Assembly: GCA_028715175.1 (NCBI GenBank)
Contig: JAQUSJ010000001.1
Coordinates: forward strand, 7,760 to 71,759
Direction of reading: 5' to 3'
Source: Candidatus Daviesbacteria bacterium
GTDB lineage: Bacteria; Patescibacteriota; Microgenomatia; Daviesbacterales; UBA10151
Length of the DNA: 64,000 nucleotides
The notes under the pieces are model-generated. The model did no database searches, was not told the origin of the DNA, and was given only the letters and a program-made list of their open reading frames with translations. Both the position numbers and the translations under genes were made by a program. Positions 5,177 through 61,317 of the stretch are shown here, piece by piece. Numbering within the stretch: position 1 is the first letter of the stretch; every line of letters begins with the position of its first letter.

Positions 5177-7519
5177 CTACAGTCTCGCTCTTGATGCTAT
5201 CTCTCCCTCGACTTGAGTCACATCCCGACCATATTTCAACCTAGATAACTCTCTGATGGCCTGGCCTATTTGGGGATTTAGCATAGCCTTCCATTTTTTC
5301 ATATCTTTAGTTGTATCCAGGGAAAAAGGCACCACCGGCTCACCATTAACAATGGTTTTAATATAAGTATGAGGAGCTTCAATATTTACCAGATCTGCCT
5401 CTGTAAAAGTGGGTGAAAATTCATGCTGCAGGTAATTGGCATCAGTTACACCCACTCTAAACCCGATAATTGTACCAACGTTTCCAAAAACAGCGTTTTT
5501 CAAATCCTCACCTATCTGACCAATAAATTGATTAGCCACAATCAAGTTTAATCTATATTTCCTGGCTTCAGAAAGAATATCCGCAAAAGTATCGGTAGCG
5601 AAATTTTGAAACTCATCAACATAAAGATAAAAATCCCGCCGCTCCTCCATCGGCACATCAGAACGGGACATGGCAGCAGCTAAAATTTTGGGGACTAAAA
5701 TTAATCCCAGGAAATTGGAGTTTTCCTCCCCTATCCGCCCTTTTGAAAGATTCATAATTAAAATCTTTCCTTCATCCATAACTTTCCGCAGGTCAAACGA
5801 GGATTTTGATTGGCCAATAATATTCCTCATCATTTTATTGGTAACAAACCGGCCGAATTTAGACACCGTATAATCCAAAACTTCCGATTTGTGGAAGTCC
5901 GTAGTTTGAGCAATCTGGTCTGTCCAATAACGCCTCACAACCGGATCAGTAACTTTCGGCAGGAGTTCTTTGACAAAGTTGGCATCAGTCATAATTCTGA
6001 CCACCTCCACAAAAGTAGCGCCCGGATCACTCATAGCAGTAAGCATCGCATTCCTAACACCATGTTCAAAACGGGGACCGATAATTCCTGTTTTATTAGG
6101 ATCAAAAAGTTTGTACATGAGTCCTATTATTGAAGCTACGACAAAATGTTTTTGTTCTTCGGCATAAGCTTCCAGCATGTTTAATCCAAATGGCCGGGTC
6201 ATATCAGAGGGATCAAAATAAATTACATCTTCCGCTCTCTGGGGCGGGATCAGTTGCAACATCTCCTCAGCCGCATCTCCGTGGGGATCAATAAAACAGA
6301 GTCCTTTGCCGGCCATAACGTCTTGCAACATTAAAGTTTTAAGTAATTCCGACTTTCCTGTACCGGTCCGGCCGATGATATACATATGCCTTCGCCTGTC
6401 GTCTTCCGAAAGATAGACCGGCCTGTCTACGCCGCGGAAAACAGACCTGCCTAAAAATAAACCGCTGACGGGAATCTTTTCCGGAGCCGGAGCCCGTTTT
6501 GATGAAAGCCAACTGATATAAGGCGTTTCAATGGACTTGTTCGGAAAATGAAAAATAGAGGCCAGTTCATCAGGTGCTAGAACCGAAAGCTTAGTAAATC
6601 TGGGCATATAACGATAAATAAAATCGGTTAAAAACCCTTTTTGGGAATACACTTTGGCGCTGGTGAATGAGTTATATGGTCCGCTAAATTGCTCAAAAGC
6701 TGTTTTGATATTGGCCAGATGAGCTTTGGCAGCTGCTTCGGAAGTGCTGGAAGTGACAATCCGCAAACTGATGTCAAATCCTGATTTGGAAAGCTTACCT
6801 TCAACTGCTTCCAGCTCCTTGGCGTCGGGAAGAGCTTTCGGATTTTTTTCATCTCCCGGCTCTTTTTGTTTTTTCAGCCATTTTTTACCTAAATCCTTCC
6901 AGGTATTACCCGAAGGCGAGATCATAAGCTGTATGGCTATTCCTTCGTTCATTTGCATCTTGGCAAAAGCCGAAGTCAGGGCTGAAAGAGGGTCTGTAGG
7001 CAGGTCGCGGAAAGTTTTAATCGGGAAATAATCCGCATTCTTCAGTTTCAACTGAGTATAAGCTACTTCCCCGGTCTCAGAAAAGATATTGTATTCTGGA
7101 ACCTCTTTAATTTCGGCATCAGGATAAGCGCCATGAATTTGTTTCTCAATTAAATCCTGGTGTGATTTATAACAAGCCACAAAAAATCTGATTGATTCGT
7201 GCAAAGCTACAACCTCAAAAGACAAATGTGGTTGCGGGTTCAAAACACCTAACATCCCTCCGGATTTCCGCAGAGACGAAAGGGTGGCAAAGAGCTGTTC
7301 AATGGCATCTATTTTAACTTCATTCCCTCTCGGGACTTTAATTTGTAAAAGCACAAACTGCAATGACAACTTTTCCCTACCCCTGTACTTAATCCAATCC
7401 ACCAGGTATTTACGCAAAAAAAGAAAAATACCCGCCAGCAAAAGCAGCAGTCCTAAAACTGCAATTGTAGCTATGATTAAACCTGTAAAATCTATTCCGC
7501 TTGCTTGAGTAACTTCCAT
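5177..7519 (-). CDS. type IV secretion coupling-protein-like P-loop ATPase (VirD4/TraG/TraD or DUF87 family)
   Basis: N-terminal TM helix. Walker A YIIGRTGTGKSELLKTL, FIDPHGD, and a Walker B-like LYVDEFQNF...LIVANQ. 780 aa. Confidence 0.5.
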   Translation of the reverse strand: MEVTQASGIDFTGLIIATIAVLGLLLLLAGIFLFLRKYLVDWIKYRGREKLSLQFVLLQIKVPRGNEVKIDAIEQLFATLSSLRKSGGMLGVLNPQPHLSFEVVALHESIRFFVACYKSHQDLIEKQIHGAYPDAEIKEVPEYNIFSETGEVAYTQLKLKNADYFPIKTFRDLPTDPLSALTSAFAKMQMNEGIAIQLMISPSGNTWKDLGKKWLKKQKEPGDEKNPKALPDAKELEAVEGKLSKSGFDISLRIVTSSTSEAAAKAHLANIKTAFEQFSGPYNSFTSAKVYSQKGFLTDFIYRYMPRFTKLSVLAPDELASIFHFPNKSIETPYISWLSSKRAPAPEKIPVSGLFLGRSVFRGVDRPVYLSEDDRRRHMYIIGRTGTGKSELLKTLMLQDVMAGKGLCFIDPHGDAAEEMLQLIPPQRAEDVIYFDPSDMTRPFGLNMLEAYAEEQKHFVVASIIGLMYKLFDPNKTGIIGPRFEHGVRNAMLTAMSDPGATFVEVVRIMTDANFVKELLPKVTDPVVRRYWTDQIAQTTDFHKSEVLDYTVSKFGRFVTNKMMRNIIGQSKSSFDLRKVMDEGKILIMNLSKGRIGEENSNFLGLILVPKILAAAMSRSDVPMEERRDFYLYVDEFQNFATDTFADILSEARKYRLNLIVANQFIGQIGEDLKNAVFGNVGTIIGFRVGVTDANYLQHEFSPTFTEADLVNIEAPHTYIKTIVNGEPVVPFSLDTTKDMKKWKAMLNPQIGQAIRELSRLKYGRDVTQVEGEIASRARL

Positions 7520-23120: not shown

Positions 23121-23382
23121 GAAAATTGAGCTCCCCCGCGTGGATTCGAACCACGAACCTTCTTCTTACAGAACTCCTTCTGTTACCAAAAGGTCTGGAC
23201 TATCTTATGTCGCCTGAGGCGACTCGGGTATATAGTCTCTACACATTTACCCCGCCATGGCGGGGATTTAGCTCGGGATTATCCTTCGATAAACTTAGGA
23301 CTTCCCCGAATTAGCCCGATTTTTCAATCCCGATTACTCGGGAAAGCTGCCTGATTAGACAGGAAGCCGCTCTACCATTGAG
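23121..23382 (-). tRNA. tRNA-Asn (GUU) interrupted by a group I intron; exons 23349-23382 and 23121-23158
   Basis: 5' exon TCCCCTGTAGCTCAATGGTAGAGCGGCTTCCTGT and 3' exon TAAGAAGAAGGTTCGTGGTTCGAATCCACGCGGGGGAG rejoin to give anticodon loop CTGTTAA (GUU). The 5' exon ends in U and the intron ends in G. Confidence 0.7.
23159..23348 (-). ncRNA. group I intron (190 nt, no ORF) within the tRNA-Asn anticodon loop
   Basis: Conserved core elements GTAGAGACTA (R) and AAGATAGTCC (S) forming P7; P/Q-like AATTCGGGGAAG and AATCCCGAGC; hairpins P2 (CCCGAGTAATCGGG), P6a (CCCCGCCATGGCGGGG), P8 (GTCGCCTCAGGCGAC); terminal G. Confidence 0.7.
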
Positions 23383-31244: not shown

Positions 31245-31308
31245 AGGCACATGGGTATTTTAGCATTATTAGATTGCCACGGCCACTACGTGGCCTCGCA
31301 ATGACAAT

Positions 31309-31338
31309 GTCTGAAAGCTGATAGCTGAAGACTGAAAG
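31309..31338. repeat. half-copy of the dispersed palindromic repeat family (tcagct/tcagac words)
   Basis: gtctgaaagctgatagctgaagactgaaag is the reverse complement of the left-arm words of the 37666, 50757 and 59027 elements; preceded by the small palindrome ggccactacgtggcc. Confidence 0.4.
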
Positions 31339-32003: not shown

Positions 32004-32091
32004 GGTGGGGTGCTTGGAGTGGTTTATCAGGTTGGTCTTGAAAACCAATGGCCGAGCAATCGGCCCGTGAGTTCGAATCTCACCCCCACCG
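32004..32091 (+). tRNA. tRNA-Ser (UGA)
   Basis: Acceptor GGTGGGG/CCCCACC, anticodon arm TTGGT-CTTGAAA-ACCAA, long variable arm TGGCCGAGCAATCGGCCC. Confidence 0.85.
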
Positions 32092-33432: not shown

Positions 33433-33851
33433 GGGGATGTATAGTCTCGACAGGATTGCTCTTTAAAAACTGCAAGCCGTTAAGGAAACATTAAACGTTA
33501 AATATTGTTTCAAAACACAAACGGCAATGATATTGCTCGTTACCTGAAGCAGTTCGCTGCTAAGATCGCAGGCGCTAACCCATTTATGGGTCAGCAACTC
33601 GCTTTCCGAATAGCTTATAGCTAAAGGTTACTTTAGAAATTGTTCTCTTTCTGACGGAACACTAAGGTACGTACAAAGTCAGGATGCTGTTAATACAATT
33701 TTGATCGATCAGTATTAACAAAAGAAAGTTTGGTCATTCAATAGTTTTCCTGCTAATTGGTTACAACTATTGAATAAAAATTAATTAGCTAAGCTTGTAG
33801 AAGTTTTTTTAGTTGCAATTTTGGACGGGGGTGCAAAACCCCCCATCTCCA
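33433..33851 (+). ncRNA. ssrA: tmRNA (ssrA)
   Basis: 5' end GGGGATGTATAGTCTCGACAGGA resembles the tmRNA tRNA-like 5' end (GGGGCUGAUUCUGGAUUCGACGGGA). 3' end GGACGGGGGTGCAAAACCCCCCATCTCCA parallels the E. coli tmRNA 3' GGACGGGGGTTCAAATCCCCCCAGCTCCACCA, with acceptor GGGGATG/CATCTCC. TTGATT-N19-ATATAAT promoter just upstream; smpB lies 0.6 kb away. Confidence 0.7.
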
Positions 33852-33891
33852 CACCATTGACTATTGCTCCACAGTAGTATACGCTGAGAGC

Positions 33892-37647: not shown

Positions 37648-37665
37648 TAAGCCAAGTATAACATA

Positions 37666-37745
37666 GTAGTCGTCAGCTATCAGTCTTCAGCTTTCAGACT
37701 TTTTTGAATCTGTCTGACGACTGACGTCTGATAACTGATAGCTAT
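37666..37745. repeat. dispersed imperfect-palindrome repeat element (about 80 bp), copy A
   Basis: agtcgtcagctatcagtcttcagctttcagac-ttttttgaatct-gtctgacgactgacgtctgataactgatagct; right arm is about 97 percent identical to the 59027-59105 copy. Confidence 0.5.
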
Positions 37746-49019: not shown

Positions 49020-49466
49020 TCAGGACAATCTCTTATTTAAATCTATACTTCTTAGATATTGCAAAAAGTTTGCAGGAGCCATCACCATTATATTAAAATC
49101 CTCTTTTATTTTATCTATCTTAAAATGTTTGGTGTTATAAGAAATTAGATAATTCGCTTTAGCTTTTTTTGCTCCCGCTATAATGTGGGCATCGTCTTGA
49201 TCAACAATATATTCTGAATATTTTACTTTAATTTCTTTTAACTGTTGCTTTAGATATACCTTTTTGAAGCTTCTTTTAAGAAGATTTTTAAGCTCAGTCT
49301 GATCAAGCCCTAATCTATCAGCTACTTCTATTAATTCTTTCTGAGATACATTTGAAATATATAATTTAAGATTAGTTATGCTACTGAGCAAAAGATTAGC
49401 TGCCCCTGATGAAGAAATTAACGAAGAGATGACCACATCTGAGTCAATGAATACCTTTTTAAACAT
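49020..49466 (-). CDS. PIN-domain protein (VapC-like toxin)
   Basis: VFIDSDVVISSL...YLISYNTKHF; acidic residues in PIN positions. Confidence 0.65.
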   Translation of the reverse strand: MFKKVFIDSDVVISSLISSSGAANLLLSSITNLKLYISNVSQKELIEVADRLGLDQTELKNLLKRSFKKVYLKQQLKEIKVKYSEYIVDQDDAHIIAGAKKAKANYLISYNTKHFKIDKIKEDFNIMVMAPANFLQYLRSIDLNKRLS

Positions 49467-50696: not shown

Positions 50697-50756
50697 ATTG
50701 CTCCTGCTCGGGATAGAATCTCGCCGTTAGGCGAAGTGGTCGGTCTCCTGACTTAA

Positions 50757-50838
50757 TCAGCTCTCAGCTTTCAGTCTTCAGCTATCAGACTAAAAATTCT
50801 TGTCTGACAACTGATGACCGACGACTGATGACTGAAAT
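50757..50838. repeat. dispersed imperfect-palindrome repeat element, divergent copy C
   Basis: tcagctctcagctttcagtcttcagctatcagac-taaaaattcttg-gtctgacaactgatgaccgacgactgatgactgaaatc. Confidence 0.45.
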
Positions 50839-51145
50839 CACAGTTGCGGCACAGTCCAGGATTCTCACCTGATTCCCTTTTTAAGAGCGAAGCTCGCAAG
50901 CTCCGCTTATTTCTTCTCCCGCCAGAGGCGGGATGAAATACCACAACGTTAGAATAACAACTCAAAACTCAAATGTCAAAACTCAAAACTAAAACTTAAA
51001 ATCTTAAAATTTTAAAACCTTTGAGATTTAAGATGCAGATTTGCGATTTGAGATCTAAGATTTGAGATTAATATGGATTGCCCCATAATGATCTGTTTTG
51101 TGACTCTTGCCATCATTTTTTTCACGATGTATATAGATAGTATCT

Positions 51146-52165
51146 ATGGAAGAAGTACATCCAATCCCGCAAAATGTGACAAGTTTCCAGTTCAAGCTGG
51201 TTGGGGATATGACCCTAAAGCAATTCGGCTATCTGGCTGCCGGCGCAGGTTTTGCTTATCTGGTTTTTGTCCTTTTCTCGCACGATTATCCAATCATAGC
51301 CTGGCCGATTGTTTTTTCTTCAACCATTTTAGGCATTGCTTTTGCTTTTGTGCCGATTGGATCACGGGCGCTGGACCACTGGTTAGCAGCATTTTTGAAA
51401 GCTGTTTATTCTCCTACTAAAAGAGCCTGGGCGAAAAACGGAAAAACTTACAAAGAAGACCCGTTGTTTGACAGCCGTCTGGTGATGTATCTTGCCGGTA
51501 CTCAAAATGCTCCTCCGGCCAAACCATCTGCTGCAACCATCACTCAAATTGCACGCCCCGCACCTTTACCAACACAAGAGAAGCTGCAAAAAACAGTAGA
51601 CCTGGCTCAAGAGGCACAACAACTGCAAATGAAGATCATCCAGTCGGAGCGGACTTTATCGCAAATTAAGGAACAGGCAACGCAACCCACACCTATACCC
51701 GTTGACTATAGCCAACAAGCCAGTAAGATCTTAACGGATTTAAAAAACCTGGTTAATCAAGCTTCCGAAGTAAAACAGCAAATTAAATCTATCCAGGAAC
51801 CAACAGTTCAACCTCAGGTTCCTATTTCCGAACCTGTCTTCAGAGAAAAAGTCAAAGTAATAGTGCCTGTGAAACCCAAACAAGCACAGATTGCGCTAAC
51901 TACATTTCCAAATGTCATAAACGGTATTGTCAAAGACAGGAACAATAATTATCTGGAAGGCGTAGTGGCAGTTATCTACGACAAAGAGGGCCTGCCTGTC
52001 CGGGCCCTAAAAACAAATAAACTCGGTCAATTTACCGGTTCAACACCGCTGCCTAATAAAACTTATACTTTGGAGCTTGAAAAAGACAATTATACTTTTG
52101 ATGTATTGCAGATTGAATTAACCGGAGAAGTTTTACCGCCTTTAGTGATTACAGCAAAATCATGA
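51146..52165 (+). CDS. PrgI-family (VirB3-like) membrane protein with extended C-terminal region
   Basis: N-terminus IPQNVTSFQFKLVGDMTLKQFGYLAAGAGFAYLVF with two TM helices is typical of the PrgI family preceding VirB4 in Gram-positive T4SS. Confidence 0.5.
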   Translation: MEEVHPIPQNVTSFQFKLVGDMTLKQFGYLAAGAGFAYLVFVLFSHDYPIIAWPIVFSSTILGIAFAFVPIGSRALDHWLAAFLKAVYSPTKRAWAKNGKTYKEDPLFDSRLVMYLAGTQNAPPAKPSAATITQIARPAPLPTQEKLQKTVDLAQEAQQLQMKIIQSERTLSQIKEQATQPTPIPVDYSQQASKILTDLKNLVNQASEVKQQIKSIQEPTVQPQVPISEPVFREKVKVIVPVKPKQAQIALTTFPNVINGIVKDRNNNYLEGVVAVIYDKEGLPVRALKTNKLGQFTGSTPLPNKTYTLELEKDNYTFDVLQIELTGEVLPPLVITAKS

Positions 52166-52932
52166 ATACAACACAGGAACATTTATCTATTTCAGATATT
52201 CGGGACGATATTCTTTTGCTGAAAGACGGGGGCGGGGCGCTTGTTCTGCAAGTCAGCGCTGTTAATTTTGGCTTACTTTCAGACAGGGAACAGGTGGCTA
52301 TCATTTCCGCATTCGCCCAAATGCTTAATTCCTTATCATTCAGCATCCAAATTGTCATCCATTCGGAAAGGCTCAACATCAGCTCTTATCTGAAAATATT
52401 GGATGACGCCAAAAAAGCCCAAAACAACCCGCTGCTTTCACAAATGATTACGGGATATAGACAATTTATCCAAACTACAATCAAAGAAAATGAGGTATTG
52501 GATAAAAGGTTTTATATTGTCATTCCGCTTTTCGCGCTAGAGCTGGGGCTAACTCCATCCAGAGAAAGTTTGGAGGGAAAAATTAAAACAATACTCATAC
52601 CAAGACGGGATCAAATTGTCAGACAGCTAGGCAGAGTCAATCTGAAAGCGATGCATCTGACCAAACAAAAATTGATTGAAGTTTTTTATTATATCTATAA
52701 TGGTCAAGTTGAGGAAAAACCGCCGGGACAAATCGTCAATCCGCAAGAATTAGCAGTTAAATTAAAACAACCCGTTCGACTCGCTGACGCTCGCTCAGGG
52801 CCTTCGGCCGCACAACCAACTTTTAATCCCGCAGCACAACAGCCAACATCACCAATCCCACCTGTGACAGAACCAATAACCACTCAAGGCACAAAAACAC
52901 ATCCTTTTGTAGTGGAGGAGTTAGGAGAATGA
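52162..52932 (+). CDS. VirB4/TcpF/PrgJ-type ATPase, N-terminal domain (separately encoded)
   Basis: LSISDIRDDILLLKDGGGALVLQVSAVNFGLLSDREQVAIISAFAQMLNSLSFSIQIVIHSERL matches the N-terminus of Gram-positive VirB4 homologs; ATGA overlap with the next ORF. Confidence 0.55.
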   Translation: MNTTQEHLSISDIRDDILLLKDGGGALVLQVSAVNFGLLSDREQVAIISAFAQMLNSLSFSIQIVIHSERLNISSYLKILDDAKKAQNNPLLSQMITGYRQFIQTTIKENEVLDKRFYIVIPLFALELGLTPSRESLEGKIKTILIPRRDQIVRQLGRVNLKAMHLTKQKLIEVFYYIYNGQVEEKPPGQIVNPQELAVKLKQPVRLADARSGPSAAQPTFNPAAQQPTSPIPPVTEPITTQGTKTHPFVVEELGE

Positions 52933-54698
52933 AGCTACCAAATTTATTTAGAAAAACAAAAACTCAGGAACAACTGCAACCCCAATTAACCGTTGAGGAT
53001 GTGATTGCTCCGGGCGAAATAGAAGTGGAGTTTAGTCATCTGAAGATAGACAGCCGTTTTTTCCGGACTTATTTTGTATCGGCTTACCCCAGATTTGTTG
53101 AGCCTAACTGGCTTGAACCGCTAATTTCTTTTGACCATTCGCTCCTTGTTTCGATGTTTATTTACCCGTCGCAATCGCAAGGAGTACTGGATGAACTAAA
53201 GCGCAAAGTAGCTGAAATGGAAGCCACGATCCAGACCGATCTTGAACGGGGCAGAGCAGTGGATCCTGCGGTCGAAGTAGCCTTGGAAGATGCACGGAGC
53301 TTACAAGACCAGCTTGTCAGGGGGGTTGAACGATTCTTTCAATTTACCCTCTATATTACTGTGCCGGCAGAGAGCCTGGAAGAGCTGCAAAGCACTTCAA
53401 AACTGGTTGAATCAACACTTGCTTCCCTTTCTATAACCGCCAGACAGGTAACACTGCAAATGGAGGACGGCTTCAAATCCACCTTGCCGCAAGGAAAAGA
53501 TCTTCTAAATCTCGCCCATAACATGGATACCACGTCGCTAGCTACAACTTTCCCGTTTGCCTCGTCTGAACTGACTGCCAACGAGGGAATCATGTACGGC
53601 ATTAACGAGCATAATGGTTCCCTGATTTTATTTGACAGATTCAGTTTAGAAAATGCAAACTCGGTTATTTTCGCCAAAAGCGGAGCCGGCAAATCGTATT
53701 TAGTTAAACTTGAAGCCCTCAGATCTTTAATGTTTGGGACAGAAATAATTGTCATTGACCCGGAGCAGGAATACAAAATTTTGGCTCAGGCTGTTGGCGG
53801 AGAATATATTAATTTCTCCCCTTCGTCTCCGGTAAAAATCAATCCGTTTGATATGTCAGCCGAAGTAACTCCGGGTGAAAATGAACTGGGCCGTAAAATT
53901 CTGTCTTTAACCGGTTTTTTAAAATTGGTTTTGGGAACGCTAAATGCCCAAGAAGCCGCCATACTGGATAGAGCCTTAAAACAAACATACCAGCTCAAAG
54001 GAATCACAGATGATCCTAAAACCCAAACCAATCCGCCAGCTGGCGGACCTCCTTTAATGGAAGATTTATACAAAGTTTTAATCGGCATGGAAGAAGCTGT
54101 AGCTATGGAACTGGCAGCCCGCTTGGAGCGATTTATTAAAGGATCGCTCGCCGGTATTTTCTCCACCCAATCCAATGTTGATATTTCCAACTCGTTTACA
54201 GTATTTTCGGTCCGCGATTTGCCGGACCAGCTAAGACCGCTATCCATCCATATGATCTTAGACTATATATGGACCAAGATCAGAGGCAAACTCAAGAAAA
54301 GACTTTTGATTGTTGATGAAGCATGGTATTTGATGCGGAATCAGGATTCGGCGGATTTTTTGGTAGATATGGCCAAACGTGCCAGGAAATATTATTTAGG
54401 CTTAACTACCATTACGCAAGACGTGGAGGATTTCTTGAGTAACGAGCGGGGCAAAGAAATTATTTCCAATTCATCAATCCAAATTCTCCTGAAACAAGCT
54501 CCTGCTTCAATCGACCTTTTGGCCCATGTTTTTAACCTGTCAGAAGGGGAACAGAGACTTTTGATGTCAGAAGGAATTGGTGAAGGGATATTTTTTGCCG
54601 GCAATACCCATGTGGCAATGAGGGTGGTGGCTTCTCCGGAGGAACATCAATTGATTACCTCAAATCCTGCTGAAATACTGGCAAGACAGAAGATTTAG
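52929..54698 (+). CDS. VirB4/TcpF/PrgJ-type ATPase, C-terminal P-loop domain
   Basis: Walker A IFAKSGAGKSYLV, Walker B LLIVDEAWYLM, typical CagE/TrbE/VirB4 C-terminal region. Confidence 0.75.
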   Translation: MKLPNLFRKTKTQEQLQPQLTVEDVIAPGEIEVEFSHLKIDSRFFRTYFVSAYPRFVEPNWLEPLISFDHSLLVSMFIYPSQSQGVLDELKRKVAEMEATIQTDLERGRAVDPAVEVALEDARSLQDQLVRGVERFFQFTLYITVPAESLEELQSTSKLVESTLASLSITARQVTLQMEDGFKSTLPQGKDLLNLAHNMDTTSLATTFPFASSELTANEGIMYGINEHNGSLILFDRFSLENANSVIFAKSGAGKSYLVKLEALRSLMFGTEIIVIDPEQEYKILAQAVGGEYINFSPSSPVKINPFDMSAEVTPGENELGRKILSLTGFLKLVLGTLNAQEAAILDRALKQTYQLKGITDDPKTQTNPPAGGPPLMEDLYKVLIGMEEAVAMELAARLERFIKGSLAGIFSTQSNVDISNSFTVFSVRDLPDQLRPLSIHMILDYIWTKIRGKLKKRLLIVDEAWYLMRNQDSADFLVDMAKRARKYYLGLTTITQDVEDFLSNERGKEIISNSSIQILLKQAPASIDLLAHVFNLSEGEQRLLMSEGIGEGIFFAGNTHVAMRVVASPEEHQLITSNPAEILARQKI

Positions 54699-54713
54699 TG
54701 ATACCTTAATCTT

Positions 54714-56729
54714 ATGGCCCAATTCTTAAAAGCAAAGTTTTTAAGCGATGCTTTAAAGTGGAAAGCTGATTCGAGGCATGCAGCTGACAAATACTTTGCA
54801 GGTTTAAAGTATGATCCTTTCATCTTTCAACAAGCAAGATTAACTTTCCCCTCATATGATAAACGCTACCCTGTTCCGGCTAATAAAGAATTTGCTGAAA
54901 ACTTTGCCAGAGATTTAGCAAATCCAACCAGAAATAAAGAACTACTGAGAATAATCAACCCAGAGATTCTTACCCCAGAGTTGGAGGCGGCAAATCAACA
55001 GTTTGAGACAGCAGCGCGCCTGGAACAGCAGCAAGTAGCCCAGGCAACCGGCCAACCACCTGTCCAACCATTTTCCTTATCTGCACCACCCAGACCAATG
55101 CAACCGCGCATCATTCCTACTGTGGTAACCCCACCAGTAACCAAGGAAGAAGCAGCTGCCAAAACGCCGACAGAGGTACCTGCTGCCCAACCTCCCCCAG
55201 CCTCAACCCAACTTCCCCCACTGCCACAACAAATATTCAATGCTAATAGAAGCGGAATAGTCGCAAGAATGCGTAACATACAACCTCCCAACTGGCTGAA
55301 AAATCTTGGATCTAGTACGCGAATATTTGCCAGAAAGAATTTGGGCAGGATATTTGACGGCCTTAGAGGGATTATTGGAGGAATAGGCAGAGGAGTAGGA
55401 GGAGCTGTCAGCACAGGATTGGGCGCTACCGCTCCATCCTTAGGTCGAGCATTTCACGGGGGCTTAAATGCTGTTGGAAGAATTACCCAACCAGGAGGAG
55501 TTGATGGAATACCTTCGGGAGGATTAGTCAAATCACCTGTTGGGAAAAGAGGTGCTATAGCTCTACTTTTAGCAATGTTCCTGTTTGTCTTTATATCAGG
55601 TTTTCTGGGAGGATTAACAGAACCCACTTCGTCCCTTAAAGCTGCATCATTACCATCAGGCGGTGGAGATATCAGTAGTTGTAAATTCACCAGATCAGGC
55701 AACTCTCAACTCATCAAAAGCTCTATTCTCTCGGGTTGGATTAGCGGCGTAGCAGCTTCAGCGGGAATCCCACCAGCAGCTTTAGCCAGCATAGCTATGC
55801 ATGAAAATCCGAATTTTACAACCAACGCTGACAATAACCATGACGCTATAACATCTAACCAGTTTTGTAATAAAGGTGTAATGTTTTGCGAGGATGGACA
55901 GGGGCATGTTTTACATACCAAAGCAGACGATGGCATAAACGACCCTTGTACGCCAGCTGAAATTGCGACCGGGAATAGAACCGCTCAAGCAGTTGGATTA
56001 ATGCAAATTCTTGATATCTATAACCCAGGAAAAGATTTATGCAGTATCACGGAAAATTTAGCTATCGCAGCGGCAAAACTCAAAGCAAGCGGGATGACAG
56101 TACAACCCACTCAGGACCAAGTTAACGCTTCTATCAGTGGTTATTACAATGGCTGTACATATGGAAACTACAATTACTGTAATGAGGTCTGGCAAGATCT
56201 ACAAAACTGCCAAGTACAACCCGGAATTCCTCCTGTAGGCGGAGATTTTGCCAGCCAGTTAGTTGATAAAATCAAAAAATCATTGGCTTGCAATGGCTTT
56301 GTGACAATTTTTAATCATGATGCCTGCATAGCTTCAATCCAACCCATTCCACAGCTGTCTGCCCAGGCAATCCATAATTCAGTATTTAATGTAACGGGTA
56401 ATGTTTTACAATGTGTTGGCTTTGCACAAGCAATTGCTACAGATTTAATTGGAACAACCGGAAATGCGATTAACTATATATCAAATAATATCCCAGGTTA
56501 TCGTTTTATTATCCGAGAAAATAATCAAATTCAAGTAGGTGATTTACCTGTTTGGAGTGCGACTACTGATAGACGATACGGGCATATCGCTTATGTAACG
56601 AGTGTTCAAAATAACGGTACATTTCAAGTGGCAGAAGCAAATTTTTGCCCACAAGATTGTGGTAAAGTAGATTTACGAATTGATTCAGTTAATGACGATC
56701 AAATAGTTGGCTGGCTAAGGAAGAGATGA
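54714..56729 (+). CDS. T4SS-associated peptidoglycan hydrolase (PrgK/TcpG-like) with C-terminal CHAP domain
   Basis: CHAP Cys/His (LQCVGFAQA...RYGHIAYV); central region with transglycosylase-like IAMHENPNF; TM helix; Pro-rich linker. Confidence 0.65.
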   Translation: MAQFLKAKFLSDALKWKADSRHAADKYFAGLKYDPFIFQQARLTFPSYDKRYPVPANKEFAENFARDLANPTRNKELLRIINPEILTPELEAANQQFETAARLEQQQVAQATGQPPVQPFSLSAPPRPMQPRIIPTVVTPPVTKEEAAAKTPTEVPAAQPPPASTQLPPLPQQIFNANRSGIVARMRNIQPPNWLKNLGSSTRIFARKNLGRIFDGLRGIIGGIGRGVGGAVSTGLGATAPSLGRAFHGGLNAVGRITQPGGVDGIPSGGLVKSPVGKRGAIALLLAMFLFVFISGFLGGLTEPTSSLKAASLPSGGGDISSCKFTRSGNSQLIKSSILSGWISGVAASAGIPPAALASIAMHENPNFTTNADNNHDAITSNQFCNKGVMFCEDGQGHVLHTKADDGINDPCTPAEIATGNRTAQAVGLMQILDIYNPGKDLCSITENLAIAAAKLKASGMTVQPTQDQVNASISGYYNGCTYGNYNYCNEVWQDLQNCQVQPGIPPVGGDFASQLVDKIKKSLACNGFVTIFNHDACIASIQPIPQLSAQAIHNSVFNVTGNVLQCVGFAQAIATDLIGTTGNAINYISNNIPGYRFIIRENNQIQVGDLPVWSATTDRRYGHIAYVTSVQNNGTFQVAEANFCPQDCGKVDLRIDSVNDDQIVGWLRKR

Positions 56730-57442
56730 TTAATAAATTTATTGTCTTAATTATTGGCGTGTTAGTAATAGCAATTATCTTCAGCTTTCTAGTGCTCACT
56801 TTTCCCAATAAAAAACCAACCCAGATTCCACCAATCCTAACCATGCCAACCCCACAACCAACAATGGATTCTCAAACATCTGTTCCAGCTCAACCCTTAG
56901 CAATTATCTCATCTTATCCGGAAAATAATACTCAAAATATCCCTCCAAATACCACTTTGAGCTTTACATTTAACAATGATATTAATGTTGATCTAATATC
57001 AGTTAAATTTAACCCTGAAGCACAATTTAATCAAACTGTTGTCACAAAATTATTATTAATAAAACCAAAAACAGAACTTAAACCCAGTACTAAATATATT
57101 GTTGAGGTCTTCGGTAAAGGTATGCCTACATCTTACTCAATTCAGTTCCAAACGGCCGCTCAGAATCCAACAGGAACTTCTCCAAACGCAGAAGGAATAA
57201 AACAAATAGACGATACCTTAAGACGAGTACAGCCTGATGCATATCTGGCTAATAAACTTCCCTTTTCAACAAGTGATTTCAGCGCCAGTTCGGCCATCAA
57301 ATCTTCAACTAATAATTTATATTTTGTAATTGTATTACAAGGACCTGATAAAACCAGTTCTAAAAACGCATTTTTAGACTGGTTAAGATCGCTTCAGTTA
57401 ACAGAAGCCCAAATCCAGGGATTGGATATTGAATACCAATGA
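56726..57442 (+). CDS. secreted Ig-like (SbsA_Ig-type) domain protein
   Basis: Signal anchor; beta-rich domain with TLSFTFNNDINVD pattern. Confidence 0.4.
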   Translation: MINKFIVLIIGVLVIAIIFSFLVLTFPNKKPTQIPPILTMPTPQPTMDSQTSVPAQPLAIISSYPENNTQNIPPNTTLSFTFNNDINVDLISVKFNPEAQFNQTVVTKLLLIKPKTELKPSTKYIVEVFGKGMPTSYSIQFQTAAQNPTGTSPNAEGIKQIDDTLRRVQPDAYLANKLPFSTSDFSASSAIKSSTNNLYFVIVLQGPDKTSSKNAFLDWLRSLQLTEAQIQGLDIEYQ

Positions 57443-57903
57443 AAAGAAAAATTCTTATAGTGGTGGCTATTACTGGAGCTGTCTTGATCCTAATTTCTCA
57501 AAAAGATTTATATTCTAAATTTATCCCTGCTGCAAGTAATGATTCTCCTCAACCGGAGCCTGTCGAACAAACTGTGTCTGTAAACGACAAGCCAACCATT
57601 GTTTCTACTAAACCGGATCCGCTGGAAGAAACTATTGTGGCTGCTACAGATACCATAGAGATTACTTTTAACAGGCCCTTGGAAAACGTGGGAGAGTTTA
57701 AAGTCAGGATCGAACCAGAAATAGACTATAAAGTTGAACTCTCAAACGATAGAAGAACAGCCAAAATAATACCCATAAAACCATACCAGCTGGGCACTAC
57801 TTATACATTATTCATCGGCACTGAAACTAAATTTGACGGAATAGGCAGATGGGGGGAAGAGAAAATCTATCATTTTAGGACCATCAAATACACTGGTGTG
57901 TAA
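57439..57903 (+). CDS. secreted Ig-like domain protein
   Basis: Signal anchor; IEITFNRPLENVGEFKVRIEP Ig-like motif; 4-nt overlap with the upstream gene. Confidence 0.4.
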   Translation: MKRKILIVVAITGAVLILISQKDLYSKFIPAASNDSPQPEPVEQTVSVNDKPTIVSTKPDPLEETIVAATDTIEITFNRPLENVGEFKVRIEPEIDYKVELSNDRRTAKIIPIKPYQLGTTYTLFIGTETKFDGIGRWGEEKIYHFRTIKYTGV

Positions 57904-57919
57904 AACAGCTCTAGAATTG

Positions 57920-59023
57920 TCAATTTAATCTTACCGGCATTACTATATATTCCAATCCCTCTACTCCTATTGGTTTAATCAAAGCAGCAGACAAAGGCCC
58001 TGAAAATTCCATCAAAACTTGAGTTGAAGGAGAGTTTGAAATGGCATCCATTAAGAATTTAGTATTAAAGGCGATCGTAAGTTCGTCCCCCTCCACATCG
58101 CCCTCAATCTCATTTTCCTGACTGCCGACTTCTTTAGTGTGAGATTCCAATTTAAGAAAACCTTTCTTTGTGGTCAAAATAACTATATTGGCCTCGTTTT
58201 TGGCAAAAATCGCCGCCAGCTTGATCGCTTTCAAGAATTCCTCTTTTGTAACCGCAGCTCTGGCAATAATTTTTTGAGGAATAATCTTGCTCCAGGCAGG
58301 AAACTGACCTTCAATCAATCTTGATGAGACCTGGGTGGAGCCTAAACTAAACACGATCTGATTCTGATTCTCGCTGGTGGCAATACCTACTTCTTCCAGA
58401 TCTTGCTCCTCTGCCATCAACCTCAATACCTCTTCAAAAGTTTTTCTCGGTATTAAACTTTTAAATTGAACGTTTCCTTTGGGTAATTCCAGCCGGCGGT
58501 GAGCAAGCCTAAAACCGTCTGTTGCCACAAAATCCAATTTATTGGCAGAGATATCTGTTAAGATACCGGTTAAAACCGGCCTACCTTCATCAACAGCCGA
58601 AGCAAACAGAATCTGGGAAGAAGTTAAAAATGCTTCTTTAGGTAAACTGATGCCTGAGGAAGAAGATAATGGAATAGCCGGAAACTCCGCCGCAGCAATA
58701 CCATTAATTGTTGCTTTGAATTTGCCTGATTCTACAGTTAAAATTTCACCTTTTAGCTCTAAGCTGATTTTGTTTTGACCAAGACCGGAAACAAGTTCAA
58801 CCAGGGTTTTGGCAGGAACTGTAATGCTGCCCGGAATTTCCACCTCAACATTTAGATACTTGATCACTCCTATCTCCAGGTTGGTAGCAGCGATCTTGAG
58901 CTTTTGCCCTTCGGCTGATAATAAAATATTGTCCAGCACAGGAAGAGTTGATCTGATCCCTATTGATCTTGCAACCGATTGCAAAAAGGGTAAAAGGTCT
59001 TGTTGTAAAACTGATAATCTCAT
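57920..59023 (-). CDS. dnaN: DNA polymerase III beta sliding clamp
   Basis: 367 aa, MRLSVLQQDLLPFLQSVARSI start and three-domain clamp architecture; downstream of dnaA on the same strand. Confidence 0.9.
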   Translation of the reverse strand: MRLSVLQQDLLPFLQSVARSIGIRSTLPVLDNILLSAEGQKLKIAATNLEIGVIKYLNVEVEIPGSITVPAKTLVELVSGLGQNKISLELKGEILTVESGKFKATINGIAAAEFPAIPLSSSSGISLPKEAFLTSSQILFASAVDEGRPVLTGILTDISANKLDFVATDGFRLAHRRLELPKGNVQFKSLIPRKTFEEVLRLMAEEQDLEEVGIATSENQNQIVFSLGSTQVSSRLIEGQFPAWSKIIPQKIIARAAVTKEEFLKAIKLAAIFAKNEANIVILTTKKGFLKLESHTKEVGSQENEIEGDVEGDELTIAFNTKFLMDAISNSPSTQVLMEFSGPLSAALIKPIGVEGLEYIVMPVRLN

Positions 59024-59026
59024 AAT

Positions 59027-59105
59027 AGTCGTCGGCTTTCGGTCTTCAGCTATCAGACTTCAAAAATTTTGTCTGACGGCTGACGTCTGATAACTGATAG
59101 CTACT
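59027..59105. repeat. dispersed imperfect-palindrome repeat element, copy B (between dnaN start and upstream gene)
   Basis: agtcgtcggctttcggtcttcagctatcagac-ttcaaaaattttg-gtctgacggctgacgtctgataactgatagct. Confidence 0.5.
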
Positions 59106-59556
59106 CGTTTCCTTTCCCGGCAGTAGTGAACTTTTGAATTTCTTCTTCTGTAACCTTAATTAAACGGAAATTAACCCGTCCGGCAGCAATTAGGTTTTTA
59201 ATGTGTTTTTCTTCGTCTGTCAAGAGGTGAGTTGTACCGGATTTAACTTCAATAAAATCGATGCGCATATTATTTTTAATACCAATAAAGTCAATTGGCC
59301 AGCCAAGAGGAATAATCCGATCATAATCGTAGCGCAGTTCGGCATAAGCCAAAAGCTCTGCCATTTTCCCTTTTTGGGGATTAATTGACCCCTGGATAGT
59401 CTGTAAAACTCGTGCAGGTAATTCCTGAACTCCTTTATACAAATCTATCAGGTCTGTTGGAATATCTGTTTTCCTACCGTGAAGCCTACCGATTAAATAA
59501 GCTATTGCTAAAAGAAGAACTAATGCGCCAATTAAGTTCCAGTTAAGGTTATCCAC
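59101..59556 (-). CDS. membrane-anchored PD-(D/E)xK-type nuclease-like protein (Hjc/NERD/Mrr-like)
   Basis: N-terminal TM helix; core PIDFIGIKNNMRIDFIEVKSG (D...ExK) followed by LTDEEKHIKNLIAAGRVNFRLIKV; 151 aa; located between dnaA and dnaN. Confidence 0.45.
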   Translation of the reverse strand: MDNLNWNLIGALVLLLAIAYLIGRLHGRKTDIPTDLIDLYKGVQELPARVLQTIQGSINPQKGKMAELLAYAELRYDYDRIIPLGWPIDFIGIKNNMRIDFIEVKSGTTHLLTDEEKHIKNLIAAGRVNFRLIKVTEEEIQKFTTAGKGNE

Positions 59557-59733
59557 AGGTATGTTCGATTATACTACATAATTTAATAAACATTAGTAGT
59601 ATTAATATGTTTGGTGGATATGTTGGTAACTAAGAAAATTGAGGCTGATTTTTGGTAAATTTTCGTGTTGGCAGGTTGTTTAGAATTAGTGGATAAGTTG
59701 TGGATAACAAAACTTTTTTGTGGAAAAGTCCTA
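59557..59733. promoter_or_regulatory. oriC candidate segment: DnaA-box cluster plus AT-rich unwinding region, 3' of dnaA
   Basis: Perfect box TGTGGATAA at 59699-59707, 8/9 box AGTGGATAA at 59688-59696 and weaker boxes (TGTGGAAAA, TGGTGGATA); AT-rich tract around 59560-59660. Confidence 0.55.
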
Positions 59734-61068
59734 TCAGGCGCTTAAGGCCTGCAACTTTTGTTTGACCTCAATCAGTATCCGTTGTATTTCTCTGTCATGG
59801 CTCACCAATTTTTTAATTTTATCCCTGCCGTGCATGACAGTGGTGTGATCTCTTTTACCCAGCAGCAATCCTATTTTTTCCACAGTTAAATTTAACTGCT
59901 CGCTTAAGATAAACATGGCGAGATGTCTTGGCAAAACCAGCTCCTTTTGTCTTTTTGCTCCAATCAAGTCCTTATGGTTTAAATTGAAATACTGACAGAC
60001 GACTTCCAGGACTTTTTTAGGCTCAATTTTAATATTTTGCCTGGAGGTGATCCTGGTTTGTAGGTGCTTACTAATGTTTTCGTTAGTGAGAGGCAGATTT
60101 TGAGCTTGAAGCAGTTGCAGTATACCGACCAACTGTCCTTCCAGCTCTCTAATGTTGGTTTCAAAAGAGGCTGCCAAAAGTTTCAGGGTTTCCTCTGTCA
60201 GGATAACTTCGTGCTCCAGACACTTTGATCTAAGGATTGCTACCCTGGTATCAAAGTCAGGCGCCTGAATATCAATCATTAATCCTCCGGCGAACCGGGA
60301 CTTAAGCCTGTCTTCAAGTTTGGCAATTTCGTGAGGGGGTCTGTCTGAGGTAAGGACTATTTGGGAGTTTTTGCCGACTAATTCGTTAAATGTATGAAAA
60401 AATTCTTCCTGTGTTCCTTCCCTGCCTGAGAAAAATTGGATATCATCAACCAGTAATACATCCGGCGAGCGGTATTTGATCCGCAAGTCCCCCATTTTGT
60501 GGGTTTGGATCGCTCCAACATAGTCGTTCATGAACCTTTCGGAAGAAGAGTAGATGATTTTGGCGTGTGCTTTTTTATCCAAAATAGCATTGCCAATACC
60601 CAGCATTAAGTGAGTTTTGCCCACACCAGTCCCTCCATAAATGAATAAAGGATTATAAGAGGTGCCCGGATTTTGGACAATGGCCTGGGCGGCGGCGTAA
60701 GCCACATTATTTGAAGGGCCGACCACATAATTTGATAAGGTATATTTGGGGTTAAGGATGCTTGTTGGAGACTGAATTGGTTTGAAAAAATCCTCCTCTG
60801 TCTGACTTTTATCCTCTATGGCAGCTTCTTTGACAATGAATTCAATATACACTTTTTTGTCCAGCAGTTTCTCAAAGGTATCCTCGATTAAAGGTAAATG
60901 TCTTTGGTTGAGCGTTTCTTTAATAAAAGCAGACGGCGCGGCTAGCGTGATCTTATTGTTGTCAATTGATTTAAGAAAGGTTTGAGAAAAAAATGTCCTG
61001 AAGTTTGCAGAACTGGTATTTGGTTTGATGATGCTTAAAAATCGATGCCACAGTCTTAAATTATCCAT
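59734..61068 (-). CDS. dnaA: chromosomal replication initiator protein DnaA
   Basis: AAA+ Walker [11 protein letters not shown], box VII, C-terminal DnaA-box-binding HTH ([13 protein letters not shown]). Start taken at [10 protein letters not shown] (ATG) rather than the upstream GTG, which lies inside a DnaA box. Confidence 0.9.
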
Positions 61069-61179
61069 AGGAATTTTGAGGGCAGTGGAAAACTTATCCA
61101 CAATCTAATCCACAAGGTAAGTCTTGGCAATATAGAGAAACTATTAAAAAGTGTATCAAGTTATGATATACTTTCTTTT
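61069..61179. promoter_or_regulatory. dnaA-rpmH intergenic region with DnaA boxes and rpmH promoter
   Basis: Perfect TTATCCACA at 61094-61102 and 8/9 TAATCCACA at 61106-61114; -10-like GATATACT before rpmH. Confidence 0.55.
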
Positions 61180-61317
61180 ATGCCAAAGCGCACATACCAA
61201 CCTAAAAAATTGAAAAGACTCAGAAAGCACGGCTACAGAGCTAGAATTGCAACCAGTGGAGGCAGGAAAGTGCTAAAGCGAAGAAGAGCAGCCGGTAGAG
61301 CTAAACTCTCAATCTAA
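61180..61317 (+). CDS. rpmH: 50S ribosomal protein L34
   Basis: [45 protein letters not shown] (45 aa); not in the supplied ORF track because it is short. Confidence 0.9.

Follow-up and report, generated by a model that had tools for sequence, protein, structure and literature searches.

A chromosomal origin of replication of the DnaA-dependent kind is recognised, on sequence grounds, in a 64-kb stretch of DNA (hereafter the window) from a genome of Candidatus Daviesbacteria, i.e., a lineage of the Microgenomates within the Candidate Phyla Radiation (CPR, also called Patescibacteria), where a gene of 151 codons, labelled hj in what follows, stands between dnaA and dnaN. The origin itself is of ordinary type, with DnaA boxes on both sides of dnaA and a DnaA-box/DnaA-trio unwinding module between dnaA and hj, while hj appears to encode a membrane-anchored nuclease, to be expressed together with the sliding clamp gene dnaN and to act in the processing of DNA. 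Taken in full, this account, namely the origin, the unwinding module, the hj-dnaN unit and the role of the nuclease, is given a probability of about 0.7, the role of the nuclease by itself being less probable. The type of origin and the protein family are already known; the searchable literature yielded no report of a PF10107 gene with a fixed place between the unwinding element and dnaN, of its extreme degree of conservation or of its start codon embedded in a DnaA box, and likewise nothing about genes lying between dnaA and dnaN in CPR bacteria or about what PF10107 proteins do. Part of the locus had been described before from the letters of the DNA alone, in what is called below the sequence-only reading.

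The genes concerned follow a familiar order, where rnpA, yidD, yidC and jag together with rpmH occupy the + strand (61180 onward) and dnaA, hj and dnaN the - strand:

61180 to 61317, + strand: rpmH, open reading frame (ORF) for ribosomal protein L34, divergent from dnaA
59734 to 61068, - strand: dnaA, 444 amino acids (aa) from the ATG at 61068, with the Pfam domains Bac_DnaA, Bac_DnaA_C and DnaA_N
59101 to 59556, - strand: hj, 151-aa PF10107/COG4741 protein, with an anchor at about residues 8-23, a linker motif at residues 33-41 and a PD-(D/E)xK domain at about residues 60-136
57920 to 59023, - strand: dnaN, sliding clamp of 367 aa, with three DNA_pol3_beta Pfam domains

The divergent pair rpmH<>dnaA is a mark of the classical origin neighbourhood, and rpmH was found by tblastn upstream of dnaA in every related contig reaching that far. 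Relatives were collected by scanning one genome per GTDB species, which gave 80 loci, all of the Daviesbacteria type, considered over 10 kb each as against 64 kb for the window; conservation of the spacer and of the module was counted over 79 non-redundant species-level loci.

Several features expected of an oriC coincide here, i.e., a box cluster beside dnaA, a local skew minimum and an easily melted AT-rich element, and their agreement upholds the origin proposed by the sequence-only reading. Perfect DnaA boxes (TTATCCACA) occur three times in the window, at 59549-59557, 59699-59707 and 61094-61102. All of these, and nine of the 22 boxes in the window that carry one mismatch or none, are confined to 59549-61114, that is to 1,566 bp or 2.4% of its length (binomial P = 1e-9 for at least nine of 22). 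Over 59 kb the cumulative GC skew declines to a minimum at 59,490, from where it climbs, the skew being -0.086 to the left of this point and +0.117 to the right. Because the right-hand side extends over only 4.5 kb, the skew test was repeated on the related loci: of the 62 flanked by 3 kb or more on both sides, 61 show a rise of the skew at this position, and the median minimum lies 42 nucleotides (nt) upstream of the hj start. As for the stability of the duplex, the A+T content, which is 60% over the whole window, reaches 75% in 59560-59660, a tract rightly singled out in the sequence-only reading as AT-rich, and 87% in 59568-59612; within that tract, the 40-mer 59568-59607 is the least stable duplex of the 64 kb (top 0.003%).

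The spacer between dnaA and hj (59557-59733, - strand) and its edges hold, in the direction of the genes, the following elements:

59688 to 59727, - strand: three DnaA boxes in the same orientation straight after the dnaA stop, TTTTCCACA (59719-59727), TTATCCACA (59699-59707) and TTATCCACT (59688-59696)
59654 to 59669, - strand: conserved 16-mer AACACGAAAATTTACC, about 47 nt upstream of the trio-proximal box and not itself a DnaA box
59613 to 59621, - strand: trio-proximal DnaA box ATATCCACC (two mismatches)
59594 to 59608, - strand: five in-phase DnaA-trios, ATA TTA ATA CTA CTA on the gene strand, 4 nt after the proximal box
59568 to 59612, either strand: AT-rich DNA-unwinding element (87% A+T), including the trios and a -10-like hexamer
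59568 to 59573, - strand: TATAAT within TAGTATAATCGAAC (59563-59576), putative -10 element 11 nt before the GTG of hj
59549 to 59557, + strand: inverted perfect DnaA box TGTGGATAA on the far side of the unwinding element, holding the hj GTG (59554-59556)

The three boxes after dnaA correspond to a cluster previously noticed 3' of the gene, with TGTGGATAA at 59699-59707, AGTGGATAA at 59688-59696 and TGTGGAAAA at 59719-59727, and its coordinates proved exact; the same arrangement is seen in loci L001, L003, L088 and L089. The 16-mer at 59654-59669, the weak box at 59613-59621 with its five trios and the third perfect box at 59549-59557 had all been missed and are added here.

The basal unwinding system of bacterial origins was reportedly defined by Richardson in 2016 and 2019 and by Pelliciari in 2021. 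According to a published search rule for this system (PMC8287927), a box with no more than two mismatches should be followed, after 0-16 bp of spacer, by three or more trios whose central base on the trio strand is adenine, and the combination found here, i.e., ATATCCACC with two mismatches followed by 4 nt and five trios, conforms to it. The trios read 3'-NAT-5' on the strand opposite the gene strand, and their orientation and sequence type are those of the Clostridioides difficile trio 5'-CACCTACTACTATTACTACTATGA, which is located downstream of dnaA (PMC7561715).

Within the lineage, a box, a spacer and at least two perfect NTA trios are kept in 63 of the 79 loci, the spacer being identical in 58 of these. 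The trio-proximal box, as CATATCCAC with at most one mismatch, is present in 72 loci and forms the most conserved columns of the intergenic stack; the 16-mer, as AACACGAAA with at most one mismatch and at fixed spacing, is present in 62. A TATAAT occurs downstream of the trio box in 60 loci, as a rule 14-17 nt ahead of the start, and the inverted box is found with at most one mismatch in 56 (estimated chance of about 0.6%), its GTG being used as the start codon of hj in 29. Boxes, trios and a hexamer of -10 type are also retained in the divergent locus L088. A second unwinding module, symmetric to the first, was looked for and finds no support, since the mirror trio run beside the inverted box comprises just two in-phase trios. 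As such, the DnaA-box/DnaA-trio unwinding module is extended to a CPR lineage, with exact coordinates.

On the other side of dnaA stands a second, smaller group of boxes:

61061 to 61114, + strand: upstream DnaA-box group, TTATCCATA (61061-61069, over the dnaA ATG), perfect TTATCCACA (61094-61102) and TAATCCACA (61106-61114)

The boxes at 61094-61102 and 61106-61114 lie exactly where they had been reported, and the box-like 9-mer TATGGATAA at 61061-61069, which covers the dnaA ATG, was absent from that earlier account. In total, dnaA is flanked by three boxes upstream (61061-61114) and five downstream (59549-59727). In the relatives, one to three boxes with at most one mismatch are found within 200 nt upstream of dnaA in 76 of 77 loci, mostly at -10 to -50. 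The origin had been described as bipartite in the manner of Bacillus; this stands for the downstream half, which agrees with the published description of an unwinding module, whereas a bipartite function is at best possible, the upstream group comprising just one to three boxes at the dnaA start. That group may serve no more than dnaA autoregulation, with which it is equally compatible.

The same boxes bear on the annotation of dnaA, for which an ORF finder chose the GTG at 61101, inside the DnaA box 61094-61102. The ATG at 61068, which the sequence-only reading had preferred, is supported as the real start: the aligned codon is an ATG in 64 of 66 related loci, an in-frame start upstream of it is absent in 35, and the predicted N-terminus MDNLRLWH is conserved. 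Besides the correction of this start, the case shows ORF finders choosing GTG codons within DnaA boxes. Both dnaA and hj begin within DnaA-box-like 9-mers (TATGGATAA and TGTGGATAA, respectively), which is why both proteins begin M-D-N-L.

Compared with well-described origins, the locus shares with the Firmicutes-type ones of Bacillus subtilis and C. difficile the rpmH<>dnaA-dnaN neighbourhood, the boxes flanking dnaA, some three boxes ahead of a proximal box, a short spacer, like-oriented CTA/TTA/ATA trios and an AT-rich stretch. It differs from them in that (i) the site next to the AT-rich element at which dnaN begins in Bacillus and Clostridioides is taken by hj, whose start is no more than 11 nt away, dnaN being found about 530 nt further, (ii) the unwinding element is bounded on its far side by an inverted DnaA box that is often perfect, and (iii) the upstream cluster has one to three boxes only and the conserved 16-mer 59654-59669 comes in addition.

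The position of hj is as constant as that of its neighbours. Wherever a locus extends far enough, across about 80 Daviesbacteria species genomes, it shows the order rpmH<>dnaA-hj-dnaN, and dnaA-hj-dnaN is kept as well in L088 and L089, even though the identity of L088 to the window is down to 36% for DnaA, 40% for DnaN and 53% for hj. The 151-aa ORF given in the sequence-only reading for 59101-59556 is indeed present on the - strand, and the comparison with relatives called for there places this gene between dnaA and dnaN throughout the lineage. The further statement that it had been inserted, together with a repeat, fails for hj, the position of which is fixed across the lineage, but holds for the hairpin repeat, present in about 10 of 77 loci. 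Relative to the window, hj has a median identity of 77.7%, as compared with 64.0% for DnaA, 64.2% for DnaN and 73.3% for L34, and in 72 of 77 loci it surpasses DnaA as well as DnaN in this respect. No more than 25 nt separate hj from dnaN in 54 of 77 loci, with overlapping or abutting genes in 29; the two genes very probably form one operon, and the overlap makes translational coupling possible. In the deep outgroup L088, the gene for the helicase loader DciA (5604-5894) directly follows dnaN, giving dnaA-hj-dnaN-dciA.

At the protein level, hj matches PF10107 (Endonuc_Holl) with 35.6 bits for a Pfam gathering cut-off of 23.8, NCBI records use the same name and all homologues carry a precomputed PF10107 match. 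The protein is 100% identical to one encoded on a 743,708-bp contig of a Candidatus Daviesbacteria metagenome-assembled genome. Residues E67, D89, E103 and K105 are invariant in 79 of 79 loci and across the wider family, and within the clade conservation over residues 46-106 is 90% or higher. The invariant I88-D89 and E103-V104-K105 fit the signature E-(V/I)D-E(V/I)K given by Feder and Bujnicki (2005) for COG4741, an uncharacterised family in which a transmembrane helix is joined to a minimal PD-(D/E)xK core (PMC1189080). A hydrophobic helix is predicted near the N-terminus, and because the net charge is -0.7 before and +2.0 after it, the protein is predicted to be oriented N-out/C-in with its nuclease domain in the cytoplasm, the cytosolic orientation that Feder and Bujnicki predicted for COG4741 (PMC1189080). 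AlphaFold2 models, of low confidence, reach a pLDDT of 55.5 with an alignment of 18 sequences and 64 with one of 66 sequences, and present the order alpha-beta-beta-beta-alpha-beta. With Foldseek against the PDB, nearly all top-ranked entries are PD-(D/E)xK nucleases, all of them weak matches (best E of about 0.03), e.g., SfsA, VRR-NUC, tRNA-splicing endonuclease, NucS and an Hjc-type resolvase. By sequence, the PDB returned coiled-coil noise only, both for the protein and for a 66-sequence profile, NCBIfam, PHROGs and PADLOC gave no match, and among known defence proteins only SduA_C came up, below threshold (17.2 versus 27 bits).

The score above the PF10107 cut-off and the invariant E...D...ExK support hj as a membrane-anchored minimal PD-(D/E)xK nuclease with its catalytic motif intact, much as the sequence-only reading had it in assigning the gene to a transmembrane-anchored protein of this type. 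Respective to PF10107/COG4741, which has been described mostly from archaea, hj has in common the Pfam cut-off passed, the N-terminal hydrophobic helix, the predicted four-strand two-helix core and E-(V/I)D-E(V/I)K. The hj clade is nonetheless distinct in being short, lacking the FP-x-TD insertion and possessing a linker motif of its own, in being vertically inherited at the origin, and in having a nuclease domain predicted to be cytoplasmic, not secreted.

The linker motif corresponds in hj to residues 33-41, P-T-D-L-I-D-L-Y-K, and in the clade to P-[TQ]-D-[LF]-I-D-L-Y-[KR], with [LV]-L-S-L-Y in the outgroup and D35 and Y40 invariant. Its core D-[LFIM]-I-D-L-Y fits positions 2-5 of the clamp-binding consensus QL[SD]LF, position 1 not being Q; the other canonical form of clamp-binding motifs is QLxLxL, and in 21 of 79 loci a Q34 gives Q-x-x-I-x-x-Y. 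The motif becomes rarer with distance, being carried by 180 of 240 close, 5 of 35 intermediate and 1 of 160 distant homologues. An hj homologue of L089 (P0382, 4001-4498) contains the motif twice (DLIDLY ... NIISLY), and this duplication is the behaviour of a short linear interaction motif, not of a structural helix.

Beyond the clade, the PF10107-type family is small, with 207 clusters at 50% identity among 1.8 billion representatives. Homologues 25-45% identical to hj have an extra insertion and are carried by contigs of 49-170 kb listed as viral by IMG/VR, where they adjoin a T7-like primase-helicase and a Cas4-like exonuclease; T7 endonuclease I is encoded on one of these contigs and a T7-lysozyme-like amidase on another, and further family members occur among giant ORFs of unknown nature. 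The searches turned up no short hj-type copy in IMG/VR and no hj-type relative outside the Daviesbacteria-like lineage. The simplest history is probably that of a phage-type gene captured early and then inherited strictly vertically; such an ancestor would have become indispensable to the lineage. In the viral loci (L084-L087 and L092-L102), a conserved protein of 305-332 aa with no match in Pfam or PHROG always precedes the PF10107 homologue, the Cas4-like exonuclease comes after the homologue and the T7-like primase-helicase lies upstream. One viral homologue contig is assigned to Pacearchaeota in NCBI and is listed as an uncultivated viral genome (UViG) in IMG/VR.

From the arrangement of the locus, a mechanism can be proposed in which hj and dnaN would be transcribed as one unit from the -10-like TATAAT inside the unwinding element, the promoter function of which is inferred. 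With this hexamer about 11 nt before the GTG, the hj-dnaN mRNA would be nearly leaderless, and the inverted DnaA box, which holds the start codon here, would sit at +5 to +13 of the unit. DnaA bound at 59549-59557 would then block transcription of hj and dnaN, and occupancy of the origin by DnaA would thereby gate the synthesis of both clamp and nuclease. A scan for sigma-70 -35/-10 pairs did not report the conserved TATAAT and found no good -35. As regards function, hj may be a nuclease for branched DNA, linked to replication or recombination and acting with the clamp at the inner face of the membrane; this suggestion, the favoured one though at somewhat less than even odds, stems from the operon, from the phage replication-module context of the homologues, from the linker motif of the clade and from a precedent in archaea, where PCNA stimulates Hjc (Dorazi 2006, as cited in PMC2588518).

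A number of observations weigh against the account given at the outset. The window offers only 4.5 kb to the right of its skew minimum, and the promoter is called from a TATAAT with no -35, a hexamer that could be part of the unwinding element. The model of hj is of low confidence (pLDDT of 64) and its fold matches are weak (E of about 0.03 at best). Most genomes lack the leading Q of clamp-binding motifs, and a pure replication role does not explain the membrane anchor. At least one viral contig with a homologue also encodes T7 endonuclease I, and because of this co-occurrence the family need not be one of junction resolvases. Last, a type IV secretion cluster adjoins dnaN, which fits a role of hj in DNA import:

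51146 to 57903, + strand: type IV secretion cluster converging on dnaN, with a PrgI-like protein, an unknown protein, a VirB4/TraG-like ATPase, a CHAP-domain hydrolase and two Big_5 proteins

Alternatively, hj could be a membrane-proximal nuclease whose substrate is incoming DNA, cleaved to feed nucleotide salvage or to destroy foreign DNA; entry would be through the type IV secretion system or a ComEC-type channel, and the place of hj beside oriC and dnaN would reflect no more than the high expression of origin-proximal genes. A membrane anchor with a predicted cytoplasmic nuclease domain would suit such a task, the same roles were proposed by Feder and Bujnicki for COG4741 (PMC1189080), and secretion clusters of this kind near dnaA and dnaN, with DNA import as suggested function, have been described in Patescibacteria (PMC12102498). 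The phage homologues could likewise serve in the breakdown of host DNA or in superinfection exclusion, and they co-occur with T7 endonuclease I. Yet hj lies on the strand of dnaN and often overlaps it, whereas the secretion genes, converging from 51146-57903, are on the opposite strand, and other classes of Patescibacteria have the secretion cluster while an hj-type relative was found, in the searches made, in the Daviesbacteria-like lineage only. In addition, a conservation above that of DnaA is rare among nucleases of defence or salvage, and PADLOC returned nothing. A nuclease for entering DNA is the main rival reading of hj, though an unlikely one.

Repair genes in the dnaA-dnaN-recF-gyrB cluster are classical, and hj could in the same manner be the general Holliday-junction resolvase of the lineage, replacing RuvC or RecU and riding in the operon as recF does, with no special tie to origin or clamp. 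By analogy with that cluster, hj may be viewed as a repair or recombination gene co-transcribed with dnaN near the origin; recF, however, comes after dnaN and encodes a soluble ATPase, while hj precedes dnaN at the unwinding element and encodes a predicted membrane nuclease. The very high conservation of hj would be in keeping with an activity of this kind, as would the relatedness of the family to Hjc and YraN (Pfam description; PMC1189080). With archaeal Hjc, hj shares, as far as its model goes, the minimal PD-(D/E)xK fold and the E...D...ExK pattern; the Hjc-type resolvase ST1444 is a weak Foldseek match (75 columns, root mean square deviation of 3.1), and Hjc provides, at least as cited, the precedent for a partnership between sliding clamp and resolvase. 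Hjc is nevertheless soluble, and hj matches neither the Hjc (PF01870) nor the RecU models in Pfam, Hjc giving nothing at E <= 1. As for YraN/UPF0102 (PF02021), to whose subfamily COG4741 was linked through profile comparison (PMC1189080), the Escherichia coli gene adjoins diaA, which encodes a DnaA-associating protein, and is likewise a small nuclease-fold gene next to that of an initiation factor; it differs in being soluble and away from oriC, and hj has no PF02021 match. A membrane anchor would be unexpected in a general resolvase, and a DnaA box on the start codon together with a site between the unwinding element and dnaN goes beyond mere membership of an operon. A general resolvase appears rather improbable.

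More ambitious, and a longer shot still, is the idea that hj is a replication factor specific to the lineage, i.e., a membrane-tethered, clamp-binding nuclease whose synthesis would be switched by DnaA occupancy of the origin, given a presumed promoter within the unwinding element and a start codon within a DnaA box, and which would, through D-L-I-D-L-Y, hold or process DNA at the membrane, be it clamp-loaded, newly initiated or branched. If true, the firing of the origin would be physically connected with the sliding clamp and with the envelope of the ultra-small CPR cells. Whichever of these functions applies, the locus supplies a concrete setting for PF10107/COG4741, a family with no assigned function since 2000-2005, the candidate settings being those of a replication-coupled membrane nuclease or of a nuclease for imported DNA; hj is moreover a candidate clade-specific essential gene in organisms not yet genetically tractable.

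The origin could still be doubted if the box clusters were only regulatory DnaA sites for the expression of dnaA, hj and dnaN, the real origin being elsewhere. DnaA boxes in dnaA promoters are common autoregulatory sites, and the short right arm of the window lends this some weight; a box/spacer/trio/AT-rich module of fixed geometry, the least stable duplex of the 64 kb at the very site, the change of skew in 61 of 62 independent loci and the canonical neighbourhood rnpA-rpmH<>dnaA-dnaN all speak against it and make it very improbable. That hj might be a passenger gene of mobile, defence or toxin type acquired recently by insertion, as its viral distant relatives and the mobile-looking hairpin repeat beside it could suggest, is refuted by synteny, with a position fixed in about 80 species and a deep outgroup, and has next to no likelihood left given a conservation exceeding that of DnaA and DnaN, the lack of short-type copies in IMG/VR and of matches in PADLOC and PHROG, and a hairpin missing from most relatives.

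The hairpin repeat itself was correctly recognised in the sequence-only reading as a copy of a palindromic repeat, and has the following extent:

59021 to 59103, either strand: hairpin repeat with TCAGnnn heptamer arms, filling the gap between hj and dnaN

Its arms are tandem TCAGnnn/CTGAnnn heptamers, and the arm motif occurs 11 times in the window for 1.4 expected. Further copies are located at 37662-37744 and 50764-50830 and a single arm at 31306-31338, which makes four in the window. The stability of folding at 59021-59103 corresponds to z = -3.2 on the gene strand and z = -5.2 on the + strand. An intrinsic terminator was considered and discarded: there is no T-run after the stem, and a terminator scan did not report the hairpin. 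No Rfam family was found for the repeat, the only overlapping match being a cobalamin riboswitch (50721-50916, - strand), inside which lies the copy 50764-50830. It resembles the repetitive extragenic palindromic (REP) and bacterial interspersed mosaic element (BIME) repeats in being short, multi-copy, intergenic, stably folded (z = -3 to -5) and variable among relatives, and differs from them by its arms of tandem heptamers, by the copy in a cobalamin riboswitch match and in that no associated transposase was identified. Found in about 10 of 77 related hj-dnaN gaps, where other species have different palindromes or none, it is a recent REP-like insertion, variable between species and outside the conserved system. 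Differing low-complexity palindromic or periodic elements were seen in the hj-dnaN gap of L006, L008, L023, L035, L050, L065, L077, L079, L081 and L082, and each Daviesbacteria genome seems to have its own family of intergenic repeats.

Among minor observations, L005 and L083 are two distinct hj loci from a single metagenome-assembled genome (JAUSHE01), the bin of which probably mixes two Daviesbacteria strains. Elsewhere in the window, a PIN-domain ORF of 148 aa (49020-49466, - strand) is situated near the cobalamin riboswitch region, Rfam matches at gathering level include a group I intron (23176-23373, - strand) and a tmRNA (33433-33854, + strand), and a borderline Rfam match to tRNA-Sec (48.7 versus 47 bits) is found at 32004-32090 on the + strand, within a tRNA cluster.

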